A stretch of 32,000 nt of DNA from Candidatus Methylomirabilis limnetica. Lineage in GTDB: Bacteria > Methylomirabilota > Methylomirabilia > Methylomirabilales > Methylomirabilaceae. How positions within the stretch are numbered: the stretch's first letter is position 1; each line of letters starts with the position of its first letter. Below, piece by piece: positions 1,273 through 15,381 of the stretch. The stretch lies in the NCBI RefSeq assembly GCF_003044035.1, contig NZ_NVQC01000030.1, forward strand, positions 1 through 32,000, written 5' to 3'. Made by a program: the position numbers and the translations under genes. Under the pieces are notes generated by a model, which was not told the DNA's origin, ran no database searches, and saw only the letters and a program-made list of their open reading frames with translations.

Positions 1273-3525
1273 ATGAGTCATTCAGGGTTACCGATGTCTT
1301 CCGCGCTTACCGCTGAGGCGATCGAGGCGATTGTTCGGGGTGGGCATGGCGACCCGTTCGCTGTGTTGGGCCCGCATGAGGTGCGCATCGCCTCAGGGCC
1401 ATGCGTCGTCGTGCGCGCCTTCCTCCCGGATGCCAGGGAGGCAACGGTCGTCCCCGCTGATGGCACGAGCAAGGACCAGCCCATGGAGCTGGTGCACCCG
1501 GATGGTCTCTTCGAGGTCGTCGTTCCGACGGCGGGCGGCCTCTTTCCCTATCGACTGCGTGTCGTAGATCAGCAGGGACAGGGATGCGAGATCGAGGACC
1601 CTTACCGTTTTCCCCAGACCTTGAGTGACTATGACCTGCATCTGATTGGCGAGGGCAGCCATCTTAGAAATTATGAAAAGTTGGGGGCCCACCTGATGAC
1701 CCTTGGTGGCGTGCCTGGGGTGTGCTTTGCGGTCTGGGCCCCCAATGCCAAAAGAGTCAGCGTCGTCGGGGACTTCAATAGCTGGGACGGCCGGCGTCAT
1801 CCGATGCGAAATCATCCCGGAAACGGCATATGGGATCTCTTCATCCCGGGACTCGCAGAGGACGCGCTGTACAAATTCGAGATCAAGTCGGCATCCGGCG
1901 AGCCGATTGCCCTCAAAGCCGACCCGTTCGCCTTTGCCTTCGAGCCACCACCCCGAACCGCCTCGCGCGTGTTCAACATTGATGCCTACCGGTGGGGGGA
2001 TGCGTCGTGGATGGACGCGCGAGCACATCAGAACGCGCTTGAGCGACCGGTCGCGATCTACGAGGTGCATCTGGGTTCCTGGATGCGGGTATCTCAGGAG
2101 GGGAATCGTTTTCTGACCTATCGAGAGCTGGCTCACCGGCTTGCGGATTACGTCACCGAGATGGGGTACACCCACGTCGAACTACTCCCGATCACGGAGC
2201 ACCCGTTTTACGGCTCGTGGGGATACCAAACAATCGGCTACTTCGCGCCAACCTGCCGGTATGGAACGCCAACCGACTTCATGTGCTTCGTTGATTACCT
2301 ACATCAGCGCGGGATCGGCGTGATCCTTGACTGGGTCCCATCCCATTTCCCCCGCGACCCGCACGGGTTGGCCTACTTCGACGGGACCCACCTCTATGAG
2401 CATGAAGATCCCCGCAAGGGCGAACATCGCGAGTGGGGCACGCTCACCTTTAATTACGGCCGAAAGGAGGTGGACAACTTCCTGCTGGGCAATGCGCTCT
2501 TCTGGCTTGAACGCTATCACCTGGATGGGCTGCGGGTGGACGCGGTGGCCTCGATGCTCTACCTGGACTATTCCCGGAAACACGGAGAGTGGATCCCTAA
2601 CATCCATGGCGGCAACGAGAATCTGGAGGCGGTCGCCTTCCTTCGGCGGTTCAACGAGCTGGTCTACGAGCGCCATCCTGGCGTGATGACCATTGCTGAA
2701 GAGTCCACAGCATGGCCCCAGGTCTCGCGCCCGACCTACGTAGGCGGGCTCGGCTTTGGGTTGAAGTGGAGCATGGGGTGGATGCATGACATGCTCGGGT
2801 ATATGGCGCTCGACCCAATCCATCGAAGCTACCGCCATAACAACCTGACCTTCGGTCTGCTCTACGCCTTCACCGAAAACTTCACCCTGCCTCTTTCGCA
2901 CGATGAGGTGGTGCATGGGAAAGGCTCACTGCTCGGAAAGATGTCGGGCGATACCTGGCAGAAGTTCGCCAACCTGCGTTGCCTCTCTGTCTACATGTAT
3001 GGGCATCCCGGCAAGAAGCTCTTATTCATGGGAGGGGAGTTCGGCCAGTGGCGCGAGTGGGATCATGACCAGAGCATGGACTGGCACCTCCTTACGGAAG
3101 GCCCCCACCACAAAGGCTTACAGTTACTGATGCGCAACCTGAACCACCTCTACCGGTCACAACCGGCCCTATACGAAGTCGATTTCGAACATCGCGGTTT
3201 CGAGTGGATCGACTGCCATGACTGGCATGGGAGTACCGTCGCCTTCCTGCGCCGGGCGAAGGACCCGAACGACTTTGTGGTAGTGGTCTGTAACTTCACC
3301 CCCGTACCCAGACACGACTATCGCATCGGCGTGCCGACCGGGGGCTACTATGTGGAGCTCCTGAACTCAGACGCCGCGATCTACGGTGGCGGCAACATCG
3401 GGAATGGTGGCGGCATTACGGCAGAACCGATCCCCACTCATGGACGGCCGTTCTCATTGCGCCTCACTATTCCTCCATTGGCCGGATTGATCCTTAAGCC
3501 CACAACCACGCCTGGTCCAGCATGA
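1273..3525 (+). CDS. glgB: 1,4-alpha-glucan branching enzyme (GH13)
   Basis: Long ORF with branching-enzyme signatures in the translation: [12 protein letters not shown] near the N-terminus, [47 protein letters not shown]. The ORF opens at 1168, but the first 35 codons run into the repeat region. ATG 1273 is preceded by AGAGGCAGGGAG. ATG 1252 is an alternative start. Confidence 0.93.
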
Positions 3526-6646: not shown

Positions 6647-6798
6647 CCCCAGCCTCTCAGAGCCAGGCCGGCCCCACGCTGAGATCGATCAGTGGCAACG
6701 GCACATACGGATCATGCTCGCTCGCAGCTTCCAGAGCGCCCTGACAACTCCTCGGAAACCACGGAGAATCGCCGCAATCGGTGGAACTCTGAGGCGTG

Positions 6799-6820
6799 GG
6801 GTATGCTGGCCAGCATACCC
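6799..6820. repeat. 22-bp perfect palindrome GGGTATGCTGG/CCAGCATACCC
   Basis: Read directly from the sequence. The 11-nt half sites are exact reverse complements. It lies 150 nt after the TPR stop and 80 nt before the island start. No U-tract follows. Confidence 0.7.
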
Positions 6821-6901
6821 ACTCATTAGCCGCCATCGCTTAGGGTCCTTTCCGGGTAACTTCGTACCTGGTATTATGTGAAGGTGGGGAGAAATTGAGT
6901 C

Positions 6902-7186
6902 ATGAGAAGGATTTCCAAGGTTAAGGTCTTGCCAGGGTATCGGCTGGAGTTGGAATTCGACGATGGGGTATGTGGCATTGTGGATCTCTCTGAAACCGTC
7001 GGCAAGGGTGTGTTCGCCCTGTGGCGCGACCCGCTCGTCTTCGATCAGGTTCGTATCGGTTCATTCGGAGAACTGGTCTGGGACGACCGGATTGATCTGT
7101 GCCCGGATGCACTCTACCTCAAGGTAACGGGCAAGAAACCGGAAGACATTTTCCCTGCGCTACGCGGCCAGCCCACCCATGCCTGA
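6902..7186 (+). CDS. DUF2442-family small protein
   Basis: ISKVKVLPGYRLELEFDDGVCGIVDLSETVGKGVFALWRDPLVFDQVRI...LVWDDRIDLCPDALY matches my memory of the DUF2442 consensus. GGTGGGGAG lies upstream of the ATG. Overlaps the next gene by 8 nt. Confidence 0.8.
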   Translation: MRRISKVKVLPGYRLELEFDDGVCGIVDLSETVGKGVFALWRDPLVFDQVRIGSFGELVWDDRIDLCPDALYLKVTGKKPEDIFPALRGQPTHA

Positions 7187-7439
7187 GATCAGCCGTTTCT
7201 TCGGCATCGTCATCAAGATGTTCTTCGACGATCATAACCCGCCGCACTTTCATGCAGAGTATGGCGGCGACCTTGCCTTGATCGATATCCGAACTCTGGC
7301 CGTATTTTCCGGACGGTTGCCGCCTCGCGTAACAGGTCTTGTGATTGAGTGGGCGACGCTTCATCAGCGGGAGCTTCTCGCCGATTGGGATAGGGCACGA
7401 GCGCAGGAGGAACTTCAGAAGATCGCGCCCTTGGAATGA
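7179..7439 (+). CDS. DUF4160-family small protein
   Basis: MPEISRFFGIVIKMFFDDHNPPHFHAEYGGDLALIDI... is the canonical DUF4160 N-terminus with the H-x-PPHFH motif. The 8-nt overlap with the DUF2442 gene suggests translational coupling. Confidence 0.8.
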   Translation: MPEISRFFGIVIKMFFDDHNPPHFHAEYGGDLALIDIRTLAVFSGRLPPRVTGLVIEWATLHQRELLADWDRARAQEELQKIAPLE

Positions 7440-7511
7440 GACTGGATCCGGTACGATTTACCGCAGGCTTAGTGGCAGCATACCTAATAGTTCGGCTAAA
7501 GGAGAATAAAC

Positions 7512-8381
7512 ATAGACTTTGTCAAGTTCGAACCGATCTCGATCCGTAACCATCCTGAACTAAACGAGCGATGGGTCCAAGACCGGATTGCCGAGGACCC
7601 GTCCATACTCGGACTTGGGGATGTCGTGTTGAAGGACCGTGAACGCATGCAGCCCAAAGCCGGACGACTCGATTTGCTTCTTCAGGATGTGGAGTCAAGC
7701 CGCCGATACGAGGTCGAGATTCAACTCGGCGCCACGGATGAGAGCCACATCATCCGCACTATCGAGTACTGGGATATCGAACGGAAGCGCTATCCGCAAT
7801 ACGAGCACACAGCCGTCATCGTTGCCGAAGATATTACGAGCCGCTTCCTCAATGTAATCAACCTGTTTAACGGGACGATTCCTCTAATCGCCATCCAAAT
7901 GCGCGCCCTTCAGTCGGGCGGCAAGGTGGGCCTCGTGTTCACGACTATCGTTGACCTCCTTTCACTCGGCCTCGTTGATGAAGATGAAGAAGGACAGGAG
8001 CCGACGGACCGGGCATACTGGGAGACGCGGGGATCTAAAAAGACCGTCGCTATGGCTGACCAACTCCTTACCATTGCCAAGGCACACGACCCAACCCTAG
8101 AACTAAAATACAACAAGTTCTACATTGGTCTCGCCCGAAACGGGCAACCGTGCAACTTTGTCGTCTTTCGTCCAAAGAAGGGATTCATCCGATTTGAGGT
8201 CAGACTCAGGAACTCGCCTGAGACCCAGGAGCGTTTGGAGTCAGCAGGTCTGGATGTCATGGATTACGACAACCGCTGGGGGTACTACCGCATAAGACTC
8301 CAGCCAGGAGAACTCGACAAGCACAAGCTGATACTGTCTGACGTGATTGCTGAAGCATATGCGGCAAGCGCACAGAAATGA
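7512..8381 (+). CDS. PD-(D/E)XK / NucS-like nuclease-fold protein with a DUF5655-like C-terminal domain
   Basis: Core GRLDLLLQD...RRYEVEIQLGATDESHIIRTIEYW resembles restriction-endonuclease-fold D...E.Q/K motifs. The C-terminus (ELKYNKFYIGLARNGQPCNFVVFRPKKGFIRFEVRL...WGYYRIRLQPGEL) resembles DUF5655. The supplied ORF starts at GTG 7626, but the frame is open from 7500 and the upstream translation looks genuine. AGGAG (7500-7504) lies 7 nt before ATA 7512. The start is uncertain. Confidence 0.7.
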   Translation: MDFVKFEPISIRNHPELNERWVQDRIAEDPSILGLGDVVLKDRERMQPKAGRLDLLLQDVESSRRYEVEIQLGATDESHIIRTIEYWDIERKRYPQYEHTAVIVAEDITSRFLNVINLFNGTIPLIAIQMRALQSGGKVGLVFTTIVDLLSLGLVDEDEEGQEPTDRAYWETRGSKKTVAMADQLLTIAKAHDPTLELKYNKFYIGLARNGQPCNFVVFRPKKGFIRFEVRLRNSPETQERLESAGLDVMDYDNRWGYYRIRLQPGELDKHKLILSDVIAEAYAASAQK

Positions 8382-8465
8382 GCGCTGAGCCAGCGCATGT
8401 ACGGGACGGCGCACTGCCGCCCCTGATGCGGAGGTTAGGCAGGCAAGGCTTCACGCCGGATGCGT

Positions 8466-8494
8466 TTGACAAGTGTTACCGTGTGTGGTAACAA
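8466..8494 (+). promoter_or_regulatory. Candidate promoter with an embedded operator-like palindrome for the second DUF4160-type cassette
   Basis: TTGACA (8466-8471), a 17-nt spacer, then TAACAA (8489-8494). The inverted repeat TGTTACC (8474-8480) / GGTAACA (8487-8493) fills the spacer and overlaps the -10 element. Confidence 0.35.
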
Positions 8495-8527
8495 TATCAA
8501 ATGGGAAAGGTCCGGCGAGGTGGCTAC

Positions 8528-8695
8528 ATGTTCGTGACGTGGAAGGGGGACCACACACCTCGACACGTGCATGTCTACCGCGACGGACAGTTCATCGTGA
8601 CGTGGGATCTTGAGAACCTGAAACCGATGAAAGGCGAGGCACCCCGCAGGGTTATCGAACTCATTGGAGAGCTTGAGTCTGAGGGACGGCTATGA
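8528..8695 (+). CDS. Divergent DUF4160-like small protein
   Basis: MFVTWKGDHTPRHVHVYRDGQFIVTWDLENLKP... has the H-x-P-x-H-V-H motif of the second DUF4160 subtype. GAGGTGG (8516-8522) precedes ATG 8528. ATG 8501 is an alternative start. The stop overlaps the next start (ATGA). Confidence 0.65.
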   Translation: MFVTWKGDHTPRHVHVYRDGQFIVTWDLENLKPMKGEAPRRVIELIGELESEGRL

Positions 8696-9177
8696 AGATC
8701 CGAGCGGTGACCGGCAACAACCGCAAGAAAGTGTTTGAGGTCACAACCTCGACCAGGGCATGGGTCTTCCCCTACGCCAAACTCGACCCCCAGCCCACGG
8801 TCCAGGATCCCCTTGAACGGGTTTTCGTGGACCAGGAACTGAGCCGGGAAGGGTTCACGTATATTCTCACGTCGGGGATGGAGGGGACGGTGCACCTGGA
8901 GCAGGTCCTGGAATACAACCAGGATCCTGGCTACTTACGGGATGCACTCCTGTACAAGCTCACCATCGAAGCCCAACAGCGGGTTCAGGCCAGCCCCCTT
9001 TCGAAACGAGAGATCGTCCGTCGGCTGGGGACGTCTGCCACGCAGTTGTACCGCCTCATGGATCAAACCAACTATCGAAAAACGATAGACCAACTACTGT
9101 CCCTCCTTCATGTCCTGGACTGCGACGTCGATCTTGTTGTACGAGCTACCAGGGCGCGACCCGGCAGAGCTGCCTAA
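8692..9177 (+). CDS. 161-aa protein with a C-terminal XRE-type helix-turn-helix; N-terminal domain unassigned
   Basis: C-terminal SKREIVRRLGTSATQLYRLMDQTNYRKTIDQLLSLL is a typical HTH. The N-terminal ~100 aa (MKIRAVTGNNRKKVFEVTT...) is not recognised. The 4-nt overlap with the upstream DUF4160-like gene indicates a two-gene module. Confidence 0.7.
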   Translation: MKIRAVTGNNRKKVFEVTTSTRAWVFPYAKLDPQPTVQDPLERVFVDQELSREGFTYILTSGMEGTVHLEQVLEYNQDPGYLRDALLYKLTIEAQQRVQASPLSKREIVRRLGTSATQLYRLMDQTNYRKTIDQLLSLLHVLDCDVDLVVRATRARPGRAA

Positions 9178-9322
9178 GTCCCAATTGCGCATAAAAGGAT
9201 AACGTTTATCTTCCCTCTCCTGGCATCCACGCAGCTTCATTCGTCGTAGGCCCAAGATTTTCAACCTGCCTTTCGCTTTTTCCTTCCGGCAGAACGGCAC
9301 AGAATACCGCGTAAGAACCGTT

Positions 9323-9350
9323 TTGTCCTGTGTGTGGCTTAGACTATAAT
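9323..9350 (+). promoter_or_regulatory. Candidate promoter upstream of the adenosyltransferase gene
   Basis: TTGTCC (9323-9328), a 16-nt spacer, then the perfect TATAAT (9345-9350). A second candidate is TTGACA (9355-9360), 17 nt, TTTAAG (9378-9383). Pattern match only. Confidence 0.25.
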
Positions 9351-9470
9351 AGCGTTGACATTGTGGAAGGACGGCTTTTTAAGAGGAACACCTCATGCGG
9401 CACGGCCGCACCACGGCAGGTGAAAACCCTCTACCCCCTAAGGGGGGCGACGGGGGATTTGGACGAGTTG

Positions 9471-9494
9471 TCGGGTTACGCTACGCTAACCCGA
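9471..9494. repeat. Hairpin repeat TCGGGTTA-CGCTACGC-TAACCCGA
   Basis: Perfect 8-bp stem. The loop motif ACGCTACGCT also occurs at 421-430, at the edge of the 426-581 palindrome. Confidence 0.5.
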
Positions 9495-9514
9495 CCTACG
9501 GCTGAGCGCTGATT

Positions 9515-11521: not shown

Positions 11522-12994
11522 ATGGCGACGCAACTGATGAAACCGGAGCGATTTTTCCTGGAGAAGTTCGGGCTGACGGAGCGGCATCTGGAACGGGGAC
11601 TGGGGGCCGCCCTTGGCCGACAGATCGATGACGCTGATCTCTACTTCGAGTACCGGATCAGCGAGTCCATGCTGCTCGAGGAGGGGATAATCAAGCAGGC
11701 GACAAAGAACATCAACCAGGGGGTCGGCGTCCGGGCCCTCGCCCATGAGAAGACCGGGTACGCCTTTTCCGACGAGATCAGCGTAGAGAACCTGGAACTC
11801 GCCGGCGCCCGAGCCAAGGGGATCGCTGAGCGGGCGGGCGTTGGGACTCCTCCACCGGTGAAGGTTGGCGGCACGCCTCCCCATGATCTGTACCCGGTTC
11901 ACCTCCAGCCAATAGAGATTCCGCTGGAGAAAAAAATCGATCTGCTCCAGCGAATCGATGCCATCGCCAGGAGCGCAGACCCCCGGATCGTCCAGGTGAT
12001 GGCATCATTTGCCTGCGAGTCCAAGATCGTTCTGATCGCGACCTCTGCCGGCGTCATGGTCGGCGACATCCAGCCGCTCTCTCGCCTGAACATCACCTGC
12101 ATCGCCCAAGAGGGCGACAACAGGCAGGTCGGGAGCTGGGGCGGAGGCGGCCGGGCCGACTTTGAGTTCTTCCTGGAGGGGGGCCGCTTCGAGCGCTACG
12201 CCAAAGAGGCCGCCCGCCTGGCCATCATGAACCTCAGCGCGGCCGACGCGCCCGCCGGAACGATGGACGTCGTCCTCGGCCCAGGATGGCCCGGGATCTT
12301 GCTGCACGAGGCTATCGGCCACGGCCTTGAAGGCGACTTCAACCGGAAGAAGACCTCGGCCTTCTCTGATCGGATCGGGCAGCAGGTGGGCTCTCCGCTT
12401 GTTACCGTAGTGGACGATGGCACGATCCCCGGACGCCGTGGCTCGCTGAATATCGATGACGAGGGAACGCCGACCGGACGCACGGTTCTGATCGAGCGCG
12501 GGATCCTGCGGGGGTATCTGCAAGATCGCTTGAATGCGCGCCTGATGGGAATGGAACCCACAGGCAACGGCCGACGCGAGAGCTATGCCTATCAGCCGCT
12601 CCCACGCATGACCAACACATTCATGCTGCCTGGCGACTCGACGCAAGAGGAGATCATCAGATCTGTCAAGCACGGCCTGTACGCCGTGACCTTCGGCGGC
12701 GGCCAAGTGGACATCACGAGCGGCAAGTTCGTCTTTTCGGCCAGCGAGGCCTACATGATTGAGGACGGGAAGGTCACAATGCCGGTCAGGGGCGCAACGT
12801 TGATCGGCCACGGCCCGGATGTTCTCACCAGGGTTACCATGGTAGGCAATGATCTTTCACTGGACGAGGGGGTTGGGACGTGCGGTAAGGACGGTCAATC
12901 GGTCCCCGTAGGCGTGGGCCTCCCTACCATCAAGATCGAGGGGCTGACAGTGGGCGGGACCCAGGGCATGCCAAAGGGGGAGCGAAGCCAATGA
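11522..12994 (+). CDS. tldD: Metalloprotease TldD
   Basis: 490 aa with the HEAIGHGLEGD zinc motif and a typical TldD C-terminus. GGGAGTGAGGA lies upstream of the ATG. A 4-nt overlap joins it to pmbA. Confidence 0.92.
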   Translation: MATQLMKPERFFLEKFGLTERHLERGLGAALGRQIDDADLYFEYRISESMLLEEGIIKQATKNINQGVGVRALAHEKTGYAFSDEISVENLELAGARAKGIAERAGVGTPPPVKVGGTPPHDLYPVHLQPIEIPLEKKIDLLQRIDAIARSADPRIVQVMASFACESKIVLIATSAGVMVGDIQPLSRLNITCIAQEGDNRQVGSWGGGGRADFEFFLEGGRFERYAKEAARLAIMNLSAADAPAGTMDVVLGPGWPGILLHEAIGHGLEGDFNRKKTSAFSDRIGQQVGSPLVTVVDDGTIPGRRGSLNIDDEGTPTGRTVLIERGILRGYLQDRLNARLMGMEPTGNGRRESYAYQPLPRMTNTFMLPGDSTQEEIIRSVKHGLYAVTFGGGQVDITSGKFVFSASEAYMIEDGKVTMPVRGATLIGHGPDVLTRVTMVGNDLSLDEGVGTCGKDGQSVPVGVGLPTIKIEGLTVGGTQGMPKGERSQ

Positions 12995-14334
12995 TCAGCC
13001 GGCAGATCGTCGAGGAAGTCCTGCAAGAGGCAAAGCGAAAAGGCGCCACAGCGGCTGACTTGGTGCTGATCGAGAATGAGCTGGTCACAGCTCAGGTCAG
13101 GCTAAGGGAGACCGAAACGCTCCGAAGCGCCAAAGAGGTCCGACTTGGGTTGCGGCTTTTTTTCGACAAACGGTCGGCCACCAGCTCCACCTCAGACCTC
13201 TCCAAGGAGTCGCTCGCGCGATTGGTGGAGGATACTGCCGTCCTGGCAAAGGCAATCGCCCACGATGAGTGCTCGGGGCTGCCGCCGGCGGAAGAGTGCG
13301 CCAAGAGCATCCCGGATCTTGATCTGTACGATCCTGACGGCGAGGCCCTCACCGTCAAGGACCAGATCGATCGAGCCAGGACGGCTGAGGATGCGGCCCT
13401 GTCCTATGACAGCAGGATCACCAATTCCGAGGGGGCAGAGTTCGCGAGCAACCTCTATCGGATCATCTACGGCAGCAGCCAGGGCTTTCTGGGTGAGTAT
13501 CGAGGCTCGACCTTCAGCCTAGCGGTGACACCCATCGCCTCGTCTGAGGACGGCATGCAACGCGATCACTGGTACTCGCGCGCCAGGCACCTGGGCGCCA
13601 TGGAGTCGCCTGAAGCGATTGGGAAGCGGGCGGCCGAGCGAACCCTCAGGCGCCTGGGCGCACGGAAGATCAAGACCCAGGAGGTCCCGGTGATCTTCGA
13701 CCCTGATACCGCTGCCAATCTCATGCGCATCTTCTGTTCTGCGCTCTTCGGTCCAGCCCTCTACCGTGGGGCCTCATTTCTGATCGACAGGCTGGGTGAT
13801 CGGATCGCCGCTGAGAGTATCTCTATATACGACGATGGCACATTACCCGGCCATCTTGGCTCAAAGCCGTTCGATGGCGAGGGACTCCCAACCCGCCGGA
13901 ATGCCATCGTAGAAAATGGCGTCCTGCGCAGCTACCTCCTCGATAGCTATTCCGCCCGCAAGCTCGGGATGAAGCCGACCGGCAGCGCGGCTCGAGGCGC
14001 CGGCGATTCCCCAACCCCCTGGCCGACGAACTTTTACCTTCAGTCCGGGTCGCACGAGCCGGCTGAGATCATTCGATCGGTGGACGCCGGACTCTATGTC
14101 ACCGAACTGATCGGTTTCGGCGTGAACCTCGTCACAGGAGACTACTCGCAGGGCGCGGTGGGGTTCTGGATAGAGAAGGGTGAGCTGACCTACCCGGTAG
14201 AGGAGATCACCATCGCCGGTAACCTCAAGGAGATGCTCTTGGGGATCGAGATGGTAGGTAATGACCTGATATTTCGCAGCAGCGTCGTCGCCCCCACCCT
14301 CAAGATCCGCCGCATGACCGTCGCCGGGCACTGA
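12991..14334 (+). CDS. pmbA: Metalloprotease PmbA (TldE)
   Basis: 447-aa TldD/PmbA-family protein lacking the HExxH motif, translationally coupled to tldD, as expected for PmbA. Confidence 0.9.
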   Translation: MISRQIVEEVLQEAKRKGATAADLVLIENELVTAQVRLRETETLRSAKEVRLGLRLFFDKRSATSSTSDLSKESLARLVEDTAVLAKAIAHDECSGLPPAEECAKSIPDLDLYDPDGEALTVKDQIDRARTAEDAALSYDSRITNSEGAEFASNLYRIIYGSSQGFLGEYRGSTFSLAVTPIASSEDGMQRDHWYSRARHLGAMESPEAIGKRAAERTLRRLGARKIKTQEVPVIFDPDTAANLMRIFCSALFGPALYRGASFLIDRLGDRIAAESISIYDDGTLPGHLGSKPFDGEGLPTRRNAIVENGVLRSYLLDSYSARKLGMKPTGSAARGAGDSPTPWPTNFYLQSGSHEPAEIIRSVDAGLYVTELIGFGVNLVTGDYSQGAVGFWIEKGELTYPVEEITIAGNLKEMLLGIEMVGNDLIFRSSVVAPTLKIRRMTVAGH

Positions 14335-14548
14335 ACCGAGCGCACGCCCCTCTATTCTCCTGGGTCATTGCGAGTGCCAGACGGGCGCGATGCGATAGTG
14401 TATCCTTCTTTCACCCCACCGCCTTGACCGAATCCGAGCTCTGGATCTGCTTTCCCCTTATGGTCTCCCCGATCATGGAGGCACTCGTGATTCCTCTTGG
14501 TCTATCGTGGATATCAATGTATCCTCATAACAAGGAGGATAAGACGAT

Positions 14549-14833
14549 ATGGGAAAGAAACAAACCGTCAGCGTGGTCTTAGATGCTGAGGTGGCGGACG
14601 CCCTGAAAGCGGAAGCGGTGGGTCGGGACCGTAGCATGAGTTGGATCGTAAACCGCCTCCTGGGTGCAGCCCTCCGGCCTCCCCATCGGATCACCCTTGA
14701 GGAAGTGCTACCCGAGGACCCCGACTGGGAGATCATCCATGCGCGCCGCCACGAGCCGCTCGCCAACTTCGACATTTATCACCGGGAGCGGGTGAAAAAG
14801 AGCGGACTGCGAAAGACCGCACGAGATGGCTGA
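14549..14833 (+). CDS. Ribbon-helix-helix (CopG-like) antitoxin
   Basis: N-terminal KKQTVSVVLDAEVADALKAEAVGRDRSMSWIVNRLL shows the RHH pattern. AAGGAGGA lies upstream. An 8-nt overlap joins it to the RelE/ParE-family gene. Confidence 0.7.
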   Translation: MGKKQTVSVVLDAEVADALKAEAVGRDRSMSWIVNRLLGAALRPPHRITLEEVLPEDPDWEIIHARRHEPLANFDIYHRERVKKSGLRKTARDG

Positions 14834-15092
14834 TGCCTACAAGGTCCGTTTCCGCAGCCGCTCTGTCCGTAAAGAGCTGGATAGCCTGGACGATGACACG
14901 TATCTCCGTATTGTGGCAGCGATCCACCGCCTTCGGGAGAATCCTCGCCCGCCAGAGACGAAAAAACTCACCGGGCAGGAGGTCTACCGCATCCGACTAG
15001 GCGACTACCGGGTCCTCTACACGGTAGATGACAAGGCGAAAGAGGTACGGATTGAAGCGGTCCGCAGGCGGAACGAACGGACATATGACTGA
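14826..15092 (+). CDS. RelE/ParE-family type II toxin
   Basis: 88 aa with LRENPRPPETKKLTGQEVYRIRLGDYRVLYTVDDKAKEVRIEAVRRRNERTY, the typical RelE/ParE C-terminal pattern. Confidence 0.75.
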   Translation: MADAYKVRFRSRSVRKELDSLDDDTYLRIVAAIHRLRENPRPPETKKLTGQEVYRIRLGDYRVLYTVDDKAKEVRIEAVRRRNERTYD

Positions 15093-15094
15093 CA

Positions 15095-15381
15095 GGGAGC
15101 GCACGATCGCGCGGAGTTCATTCGGTTGGTAGACGAAGGCCTCTCCATCACAACTCATCGGCCCCGGCGTGAACCTCGTCACAGGCGACTACTCGCAGAG
15201 CGCGGTGGGGTTCTGGATCGAGAAGGGTGAGCTGACCTACCCGGTAGAGGAGATCACCATTGCCGGTAACCTCAAGGAGATGCTCTTGGGGATCGAGATG
15301 GTCGGTAATGACCTGACATTTCGCAGCAGCGTCATCGCCCCCACCCTCAAGATCCACCGCATGACCGTCGCCGGACACTAA
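15095..15381 (+). pseudogene. Orphan duplicate of the pmbA 3' end
   Basis: 15166-15381 aligns base for base with 14119-14334 (216 nt, 10 mismatches counted by eye). 15095-15165 is a much more diverged match to 14047-14118, with a 1-nt length difference that breaks the frame. It begins 2 nt after the RelE-family stop. Confidence 0.85.

Follow-up and report, generated by a model that had tools for sequence, protein, structure and literature searches.

Organization of the five-gene block

We analyzed a block of five genes, here called g1 to g5, in a stretch of 32,000 nucleotides from Candidatus Methylomirabilis limnetica (contig NZ_NVQC01000030.1, positions 1 to 32,000); the whole stretch is referred to as the window. 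The block had been read from the sequence as five open reading frames (ORFs) on the plus strand, lying between a TPR gene and a cob(I)alamin adenosyltransferase gene, and our analysis confirmed their number, strand, and coordinates as well as the overlaps of 8 nt and 4 nt within the pairs g1-g2 and g4-g5. The same block was found in five independent Ca. Methylomirabilis limnetica assemblies, and the g5 protein is 100% identical to CLG94_11320 of this species. The genes and associated features are listed below, with g1-g2 as cassette 1, g3 as cassette 2, and g4-g5 as cassette 3.

6799 to 6820, no strand: perfect 22-bp palindrome GGGTATGCTGG/CCAGCATACCC, an inverted repeat with 100% complementarity
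6826 to 6901, + strand: leader of cassette 1, starting at TTAGCC (6826) and carrying an inverted repeat, an extended -10 element, and a ribosome-binding site
6902 to 7186, + strand: g1, 94 amino acids, DUF2442, predicted antitoxin of cassette 1
7179 to 7439, + strand: g2, 86 amino acids, DUF4160, predicted toxin of cassette 1, overlapping g1 by 8 nt
7495 to 8404, + strand: span of cassette 2, the region matching unrelated contigs that carry g3, beginning within GTTCGGC (7490 to 7496)
7512 to 8381, + strand: g3, 289 amino acids, NucS/EndoMS-like PD-(D/E)XK domain plus DUF5655 domain, ATA start
8466 to 8495, + strand: promoter of cassette 3, TTGACA, 18-nt spacer, AACAAT, with an inverted repeat inside
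8501 to 8695, + strand: g4, 64 amino acids, minimal DUF4160-like protein, predicted toxin of cassette 3
8692 to 9177, + strand: g5, 161 amino acids, predicted antitoxin and repressor with a C-terminal XRE/Cro-type helix-turn-helix (HTH), overlapping g4 by 4 nt

The base composition gives no indication of a foreign origin of the block (GC content of 0.54 to 0.58 versus about 0.59 in the surroundings). A search of the window for tRNA genes and Rfam families returned none, and no tRNA-linked integration site was seen.

Probable independence of the three cassettes

In the sequence-only reading, the five genes were proposed to form an integrated addiction or defense island, with the small pairs controlling or accompanying the nuclease-like g3; on that proposal, the mirrored order of the pairs around it would be functional. 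The genes do lie on one strand with short gaps, both pairs have the architecture of toxin-antitoxin modules, and relatives of g3 occur in defense-rich neighborhoods. However, unrelated contigs match the block only within three separate spans, 6821/6826 to 7441/7445, 7495 to 8404, and 8466 to 9144/9176, and the gene neighborhoods argue against any linkage. We compared 80 metagenomic loci carrying g2 relatives with 79 to 98% identity, and within 3 kb none of them had g3, g5, or a g4-type gene beyond g2 itself. No detectable DUF4160 gene was near g3 in any of the 82 g3 loci, and DUF2442 genes were near it in only one (L068). Neither g1, g2, nor g3 was present at the 11 g5 loci. The 148 proteins encoded immediately beside g3 matched 173 Pfam families, of which none occurred in more than 4 proteins. 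By this distribution, g3 reads as a solo gene.

The genome of a sister Methylomirabilis (GCA_028716865.1) offers a direct comparison of the site. The flanking synteny is kept there, with the TPR gene, the promoter, a g4 stub, g5, and the adenosyltransferase gene, and the stretch corresponding to window positions 6684 to 8454, which holds g1-g3, is absent. Since no part of the block except a remnant of g4-g5 is present in the sister genome, we take g4-g5 to be ancestral at the site and g1-g3 to be an indel, which would be either a later insertion here or a deletion in the sister lineage.

Two further facts stand against an integrated island. The ATG of g3 has been lost here while both pairs are intact, and the mirror symmetry is explained by the side-by-side placing of pairs with fixed order: because the gene order of each pair is fixed in its own family, the mirrored arrangement is an accident of juxtaposition. 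The gene-neighborhood data largely refute the five-gene island, which we regard as extremely improbable, and we found no support for a role of the pairs in controlling or accompanying the nuclease. We consider it likely that three cassettes, each mobile on its own and independent of the others, make up the block as a mosaic, and that the pairs do not regulate the nuclease.

Cassette 1 and its relation to DhiTA

Profile searches assigned g1 to Pfam DUF2442 (3.1e-12, 46.9 bits versus a cutoff of 23.9), g2 to Pfam DUF4160 (2.2e-21, 76.3 bits versus a cutoff of 23), and g4, marginally, also to DUF4160 (7.6e-6, 26.5 bits versus a cutoff of 23), so that the families first proposed for these three proteins all hold above the Pfam cutoffs. 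The earlier statement that no function had been demonstrated for either DUF family is outdated. DhiTA of Dickeya dadantii 3937 is a DUF4160/DUF2442 type II toxin-antitoxin system, in which overexpression of DhiT arrests growth, co-expression of DhiA rescues it, and the complex represses the promoter (PMC8198452). In Thermus thermophilus, a module of DUF4160 (87 amino acids) and DUF2442 (92 amino acids) raises plasmid persistence, and a deletion of the DUF2442 gene could not be introduced (PMC12724237). DUF4160 has further been listed as an effector domain that is usually found beside DUF2442 (PMC12065111).

NCBIfam now contains models for both DhiTA proteins. The toxin_DhiT model matched g2 at 2.7e-22 and 79.1 bits, under its equivalog cutoff of 100 bits, and the DhiA model matched only the N-terminal part of g1 at 7.5e-7 and 29.7 bits, under its equivalog cutoff of 200 bits. 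The score of g4 with DhiT was 14.7 bits, and g5 matched neither model. All four proteins therefore fall short of the DhiT/DhiA equivalog cutoffs, with g1, g2, and g4 belonging to the same Pfam families. The resemblance to DhiTA lies in a clear DUF4160 protein (g2) and a clear DUF2442 protein (g1) encoded by a small overlapping bicistron, in g4 as a shortened DUF4160 that keeps the D-H-x-P-x-H-x-H motif, and in the toxin-only decay seen among g1-g2 relatives. The differences concern gene order, size, and partner. The Dickeya and Thermus systems have the toxin first, as pair 2 does, whereas pair 1 has the antitoxin first; g1 has 94 amino acids compared with the 160 positions of the DhiA model; and g5, the partner in pair 2, shows no DUF2442 signal and consists of an N-terminal domain matching no known family and an XRE-type HTH.

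The organization of cassette 1 is well conserved. In 77/77 loci with enough sequence, the gene immediately before the g2 homologue is a g1 homologue, and the 8-nt overlap is kept in 69 of these 77. The leader contains the inverted repeat CCGGGTA-N6-TACCTGG at 6852 to 6871, the extended -10 element TGgTATTAT (6869 to 6877), and the ribosome-binding site GGGGAG (6886 to 6891), and in an alignment of 12 loci both the -10 region and the ribosome-binding site are conserved. The inverted repeat overlaps the extended -10 element and is a plausible autoregulation site. By homology to the tested systems, g2 would inhibit growth, and g1 would bind and neutralize it.

Probable origin of cassette 1 in the integron cassette pool

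In other contigs, the g1-g2 unit is an integron cassette that starts at G/TTAGCC and ends with an attC site, after which the sequences diverge. These attC sites have an R'' core of the GGCTAAC type, imperfect inverted repeats, and an R' core of the form GTTRRRY; an example is GGCTAAC-TATTGGGTTGAGAC...TCTCACCCAAAAC-GTTAGGC at positions 3181 to 3240 of locus L096. We built a covariance model from 18 attC sites that follow g1-g2 relatives, and it returned 40 matches in 0.27 Mb of g1-g2 loci (L094 to L173), all in gene orientation. Arrays with a spacing of 0.7 to 1.3 kb were found in several contigs, among them L165, L112, L114, and L154, with the sites of L165 at 956 to 1044, 2567 to 2654, and 3289 to 3376. 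In the window, homology to these loci starts between 6821 and 6834, and in 9 of the 18 g1-g2 loci compared it starts at the TTAGCC junction at 6826. Because the homology begins at this junction and the relatives carry attC, we suggest with moderate confidence that the integron cassette pool is the probable source of cassette 1 and that the attC of this copy was lost afterwards. As in known integron toxin-antitoxin cassettes, the g1-g2 relatives have G/TTRRRY junctions and attC arrays, but the copy in the window has no detectable attC.

The same observations invite a wider explanation, in which the whole block is a decayed integron-type cassette array that arrived by the action of an integrase and whose attC sites have eroded. 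This would fit the canonical attC sites and arrays behind g1-g2 relatives and the left boundary that falls exactly on the TTAGCC junction, and cassette 2 starts at GTTCGGC while a GTTAGGC occurs at 8435 to 8441. The covariance model, however, found no attC in the 32-kb window at E < 1 (the best match, with E = 1, is outside the block), the homology to attC-bearing cassettes ends at 7441 to 7445, before the R'' core, and the g3 and g5 loci gave only 2 marginal matches in 0.87 Mb. In addition, nothing resembling an integrase was seen among the Pfam-labeled gene calls around the block, the other large ORFs of the window being without annotation. A decayed array is thus an unlikely account of the block as a whole. 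It is a statement about origin and not about function, and it agrees with the three-cassette interpretation for cassette 1 only.

The marginal attC matches in g3 loci lie at 6871 to 6940 of L030 and 43 to 105 of L050, and one of the two comes immediately after the g3 homologue of a contig from Burkholderiales, so that integrons may now and then carry g3 as well. The right end of the 22-bp palindrome is 5 nt away from the left boundary of cassette 1, and its right arm together with the junction, GGCCAGCATACCCACTCATTAGCC (6807 to 6831), resembles the sequence before cassette 2, GGCAGCATACCTAATAGTTCGGC (7472 to 7496). The two segments may be relics of related recombination sites. A 13-nt motif within them (6809 to 6821 and 7474 to 7486) does not clearly exceed the chance level, with 4 matches versus 1.05 expected and 2 of 100 shuffles reaching 4.

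Cassette 2: reading frame of g3

The length of about 290 amino acids first assigned to the middle protein is that of its family, but in the window it requires an ATA start. The frame of g3 is open from 7500, and the first ATG, GTG, or TTG is the GTG at 7626, which would give a product of 251 amino acids; gene callers give 244 amino acids instead. An ATA at 7512 to 7514 is placed 7 nt after the ribosome-binding site AGGAG (7500 to 7504). There are more than 8,000 relatives of g3, and the top 120 are nearly all 287 to 291 amino acids long, mostly 289; they begin with M-[D/E]-[F/L]-x-K-F-E, and this start aligns with the ATA at 7512. On the basis of the length and start position of the relatives, we take 289 amino acids to be the true family length and the window to carry an ATG-to-ATA change.

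Nucleotide matches to cassette 2 cover 7495 to 8404 at 95% identity in L001 and L002 and 7500 to 8421 in L003. The g3 copies of L001 and L002, which are 97% identical, have ATG at the start position, as do the other relatives, and all five M. limnetica assemblies (L089 to L093) have ATA. The remainder of the gene in the window is intact, with a ratio of nonsynonymous to synonymous divergence (dN/dS) of 0.08 relative to L001. The presence of ATA in all five assemblies in an otherwise intact gene points to a recent, fixed start-codon lesion, and the change represents either a very recent silencing or non-canonical initiation. In E. coli, initiation at ATA reaches about 0.1 to 1% of the ATG level. 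With ATG changed to ATA, expression of g3 is probably very weak or lost here.

Fold and distribution of the g3 family

A restriction-endonuclease fold and a DUF5655-type tail had been recognized in g3, and both are supported by the structure model and by family-level matches. The AlphaFold model was obtained from a diverse alignment of 73 sequences, with a predicted local distance difference test (pLDDT) score of 93.1; a shallow alignment had given a pLDDT below 50 for residues 72 to 124, and the more diverse alignment cured the N-terminal domain. In the model, residues ~1 to 150 form an alpha-beta-beta-beta-alpha-beta PD-(D/E)XK core, with a helix at 19 to 33, strands at 38 to 47, 51 to 59, and 64 to 74, a helix at 77 to 93, and a strand at 98 to 107. 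Foldseek searches with this domain gave EndoMS/NucS as the best matches (5gke_A, 7.3e-5; 2vld_B, 1.2e-4; probability 1.0), followed by AF1548 and Card1. Residues 165 to 289 resemble YdhG/DUF1801 (2oc6), YjbR, DUF419, and the double-wing domain of T4 MotA (1kaf), with probabilities of 0.98 to 1.0 and target-normalized template modeling (TM) scores of 0.5 to 0.6; the sequence identity is only 8 to 17%. By analogy with MotA, the C-terminal domain may bind DNA. Sequence searches of g3 against PDB chains gave nothing useful.

At the family level, Pfam DUF5655 scored 15.2 to 15.6 bits with the g3 of the window, compared with a gathering cutoff of 24, and was matched by 25/73 family members (best, 5.2e-8); several sources name close relatives of g3 as DUF5655 domain-containing proteins. 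The NCBIfam family "endonuclease NucS" was matched by 12/73 members, and scattered sub-threshold matches were obtained to NucS_C, PDDEXK_2, PDDEXK_9, MmcB-like, and Tox-REase-9. The conserved residues of the family are E19, D54 (71/73), E69 (69/73), D76, H79, R82, E85-Y86-W87, and E106. At residue 71, where the (D/E)xK motif canonically has Lys, 61 members have Q, 11 have M, and 1 has R; none of the 73 has K. E-x-Q variants occur in active enzymes such as BglII, and E-x-Q in place of E-x-K would be compatible with nuclease activity of g3.

Residues ~1 to 150 of g3 superpose on the catalytic domain of NucS/EndoMS (2vld, 5gke), and three acidic residues, E19, D54, and E69, are among the conserved positions. 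The matches raise the possibility that g3 is a housekeeping mismatch repair endonuclease of the NucS/EndoMS kind and not a mobile defense or selfish gene. NucS and EndoMS are the best structural matches, with NCBIfam support in the 12 members, and purifying selection is very strong (dN of 0.08 to 0.19, with dS saturated). Only the nuclease domain matches, however, with ~118 to 125 aligned residues; g3 has no counterpart of the mismatch-binding domain at the N terminus of NucS, its nuclease domain is N-terminal where that of NucS is C-terminal, DUF5655 is attached behind it, and the catalytic Lys is Q or M. The gene is also missing at the sister locus, has variable neighbors, and has lost its ATG here, and its patchy occurrence in ~25 phyla at 60 to 87% identity fits horizontal spread. 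A repair function of this kind is highly unlikely in our view, and the model describes a protein that appears NucS-like in fold and yet is not NucS.

Relatives of g3 were found in at least 500 GTDB species, and the 80 loci kept (L003 to L082) span ~25 phyla, including the archaeon Methanothrix and candidate-phyla-radiation bacteria (e.g., L016, L013, L037, and L050). Clustering at 50% identity divides the family into at least 2,295 groups. Its conservation is unusually tight for a patchily distributed accessory gene. The phage collection held no g3 record and plasmids only 14 records. Gp54 of Bacillus phage G (BFVD G3MBC4), a protein of 296 amino acids, matches the whole two-domain model of g3 (1.9e-13, 281 columns), indicating that the architecture is present in viruses too, and further phage proteins labeled DUF5655, RecB-like, or Mrr-like match parts of the model.

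Defense genes are often found among the neighbors of g3, including MADS mad2/mad3, PARIS AriA, type I and IIG restriction-modification genes, BREX PglX/BrxA, DISARM DrmMI, and AbiLi. The PADLOC families PDC-S11 and PDC-S18, single-gene candidates without demonstrated defense function, were matched by 14 to 16 of the 73 members (best, 8e-9 and 2.7e-7, respectively). The match is weak and partial, the g3 of the window aligning with PDC-S18 at 5.6e-5 over residues 102 to 283, which is the C-terminal two thirds only. Two g3 homologues are directly adjoined by a PDC-S11-type gene (9.6e-28), and this, together with the weak match of the g3 family to PDC-S11, suggests tandem distant paralogues in some genomes. 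Relevant literature on DUF5655 or PDC-S11/PDC-S18 did not turn up in the library searched. Probably, g3 is a DNA-binding nuclease acting alone. As a solo nuclease-like protein, it would most likely cut or sense foreign DNA in a single-gene defense or restriction-like role.

Cassette 3: a minimal DUF4160 protein with a different partner

Both pairs had been described as DUF4160/DUF2442-type pairs, which is correct for pair 1 but not for pair 2. The shared His-rich motif was borne out by the alignment of g2 and g4, with DHNPPHFH in the former and DHTPRHVH in the latter (D-H-x-P-x-H-x-H; BLASTP, 30% identity over 53 residues, E = 2e-5). The HTH of g5 was likewise supported by XRE-type matches across the family: HTH_37, HTH_26, and HTH_31 matched the C-terminal part below threshold, yet did so in 29, 29, and 23 of the 29 family members, respectively. 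A PDB profile search gave a weak match to 2o38 (0.054), for the HTH part only. The N-terminal ~90 residues of g5 matched no known family in Pfam, NCBIfam, or the PDB profile search. Assignment of the N-terminal half as a DhiA-like DUF2442 domain was rejected, as hhalign gave a probability of 0.6% and 0/29 members matched DUF2442. Since g5 has no DUF2442 signal, pair 2 combines DUF4160 with a different partner.

The architecture of both pairs, small overlapping bicistrons that are conserved as units, fits toxin-antitoxin modules as had been suggested. In 8 of the 11 g5 loci, a full-length g4 immediately precedes g5, and the 4-nt overlap is present in the gene calls of seven of the loci (L083, L084, L087, L174, L176, L177, and L178). 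In the other three loci, a C-terminal stub of the last ~20 codons of g4 is left, with the promoter, operator, and g5 kept (L088 from the sister Methylomirabilis genome, 5913 to 6001; L085, 2942 to 3001; L086, 688 to 747), and these loci appear to carry orphan g5 antitoxins after the loss of g4. Toxin-only decay with the antitoxin retained thus occurs in both families, with the g2 toxin cut short in 6/80 loci and g4 in L085, L086, and L088. Loss of the toxin with retention of the antitoxin is the expected pattern for toxin-antitoxin loci.

The palindrome-bearing promoter noted earlier was found again, with TTGACA at 8466 to 8471, an 18-nt spacer, AACAAT at 8490 to 8495, and GTTACC-N6-GGTAAC at 8475 to 8492. 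The -35 hexamer and both arms of the inverted repeat are kept in L083, L087, and L088, which are ~70% identical overall and in which the spacer varies, and the repeat fits a predicted operator for the HTH of g5. With 5 nt between the -10 hexamer and the start codon of g4, transcription may yield a leaderless mRNA. In the mechanism that we propose, the 64-amino-acid mini-DUF4160 toxin g4 would be neutralized by g5, whose HTH probably represses the g4-g5 operon at GTTACC-N6-GGTAAC inside the promoter.

Other features of the window

A ParE-type toxin-antitoxin pair (~14549 to 14833 and ~14826 to 15092) lies just after the second PmbA/TldD gene, in the region ~14333 to 15380, and is followed by a ~280-bp duplicate of the 3' end of that gene. 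Positions 11558 to 11840 of L088 match both ~14050 to 14332 and 15100 to 15380 of the window. The pair looks like another cassette insertion, with target duplication. The 337-nt gap between g5 and the adenosyltransferase gene (9178 to 9514) contains a promoter-like sequence of TTGTCC, a 16-nt spacer, and TATAAT (9323 to 9350), and no cobalamin riboswitch was detected in it by Rfam matching.

Points against the three-cassette interpretation

Several points weigh against the interpretation of the block as three independent cassettes with the functions given above. Adjacent genes on the same strand could still be co-transcribed here by read-through. The roles of g1 to g5 are drawn from homology and architecture and not from these proteins themselves: g1 and g2 score below the equivalog level, and the antitoxin-first order of pair 1 in 77/77 relatives is the reverse of that in the tested systems. 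The binding of g4 by g5, whose N-terminal domain matches nothing, is assumed from the architecture. As the canonical Lys is missing, g3 may bind rather than cut DNA, and the defense genes beside it are individual occurrences.

Biological implications

The block of M. limnetica reads not as a novel composite system but as selfish cassettes that have accumulated in the ordinary way, DUF4160/DUF2442 being an already validated toxin-antitoxin combination. What is new in cassette 1 is that a DhiTA subfamily with the antitoxin gene in first place circulates in integron cassettes, which links this toxin-antitoxin family to the cassette pool. In cassette 3, a minimal DUF4160 protein of 64 amino acids is combined with a different, predicted HTH antitoxin and a conserved operator-like repeat, which would be useful for working out the activity of DUF4160 toxins.

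It is possible, though we put it forward only tentatively and think it somewhat doubtful, that two further statements hold jointly: that g3 is an unrecognized single-gene DNA-targeting defense enzyme and that g4-g5 represents a new antitoxin class for DUF4160 toxins. If so, g3 might be, for example, a modification- or structure-dependent restriction nuclease whose conservation reflects the recognition of a universal DNA feature, and g5 would combine a novel toxin-binding domain with an HTH. The g3 family is widespread, uncharacterized, strongly conserved, and found beside defense genes, and it is a reasonable candidate for defense screening.

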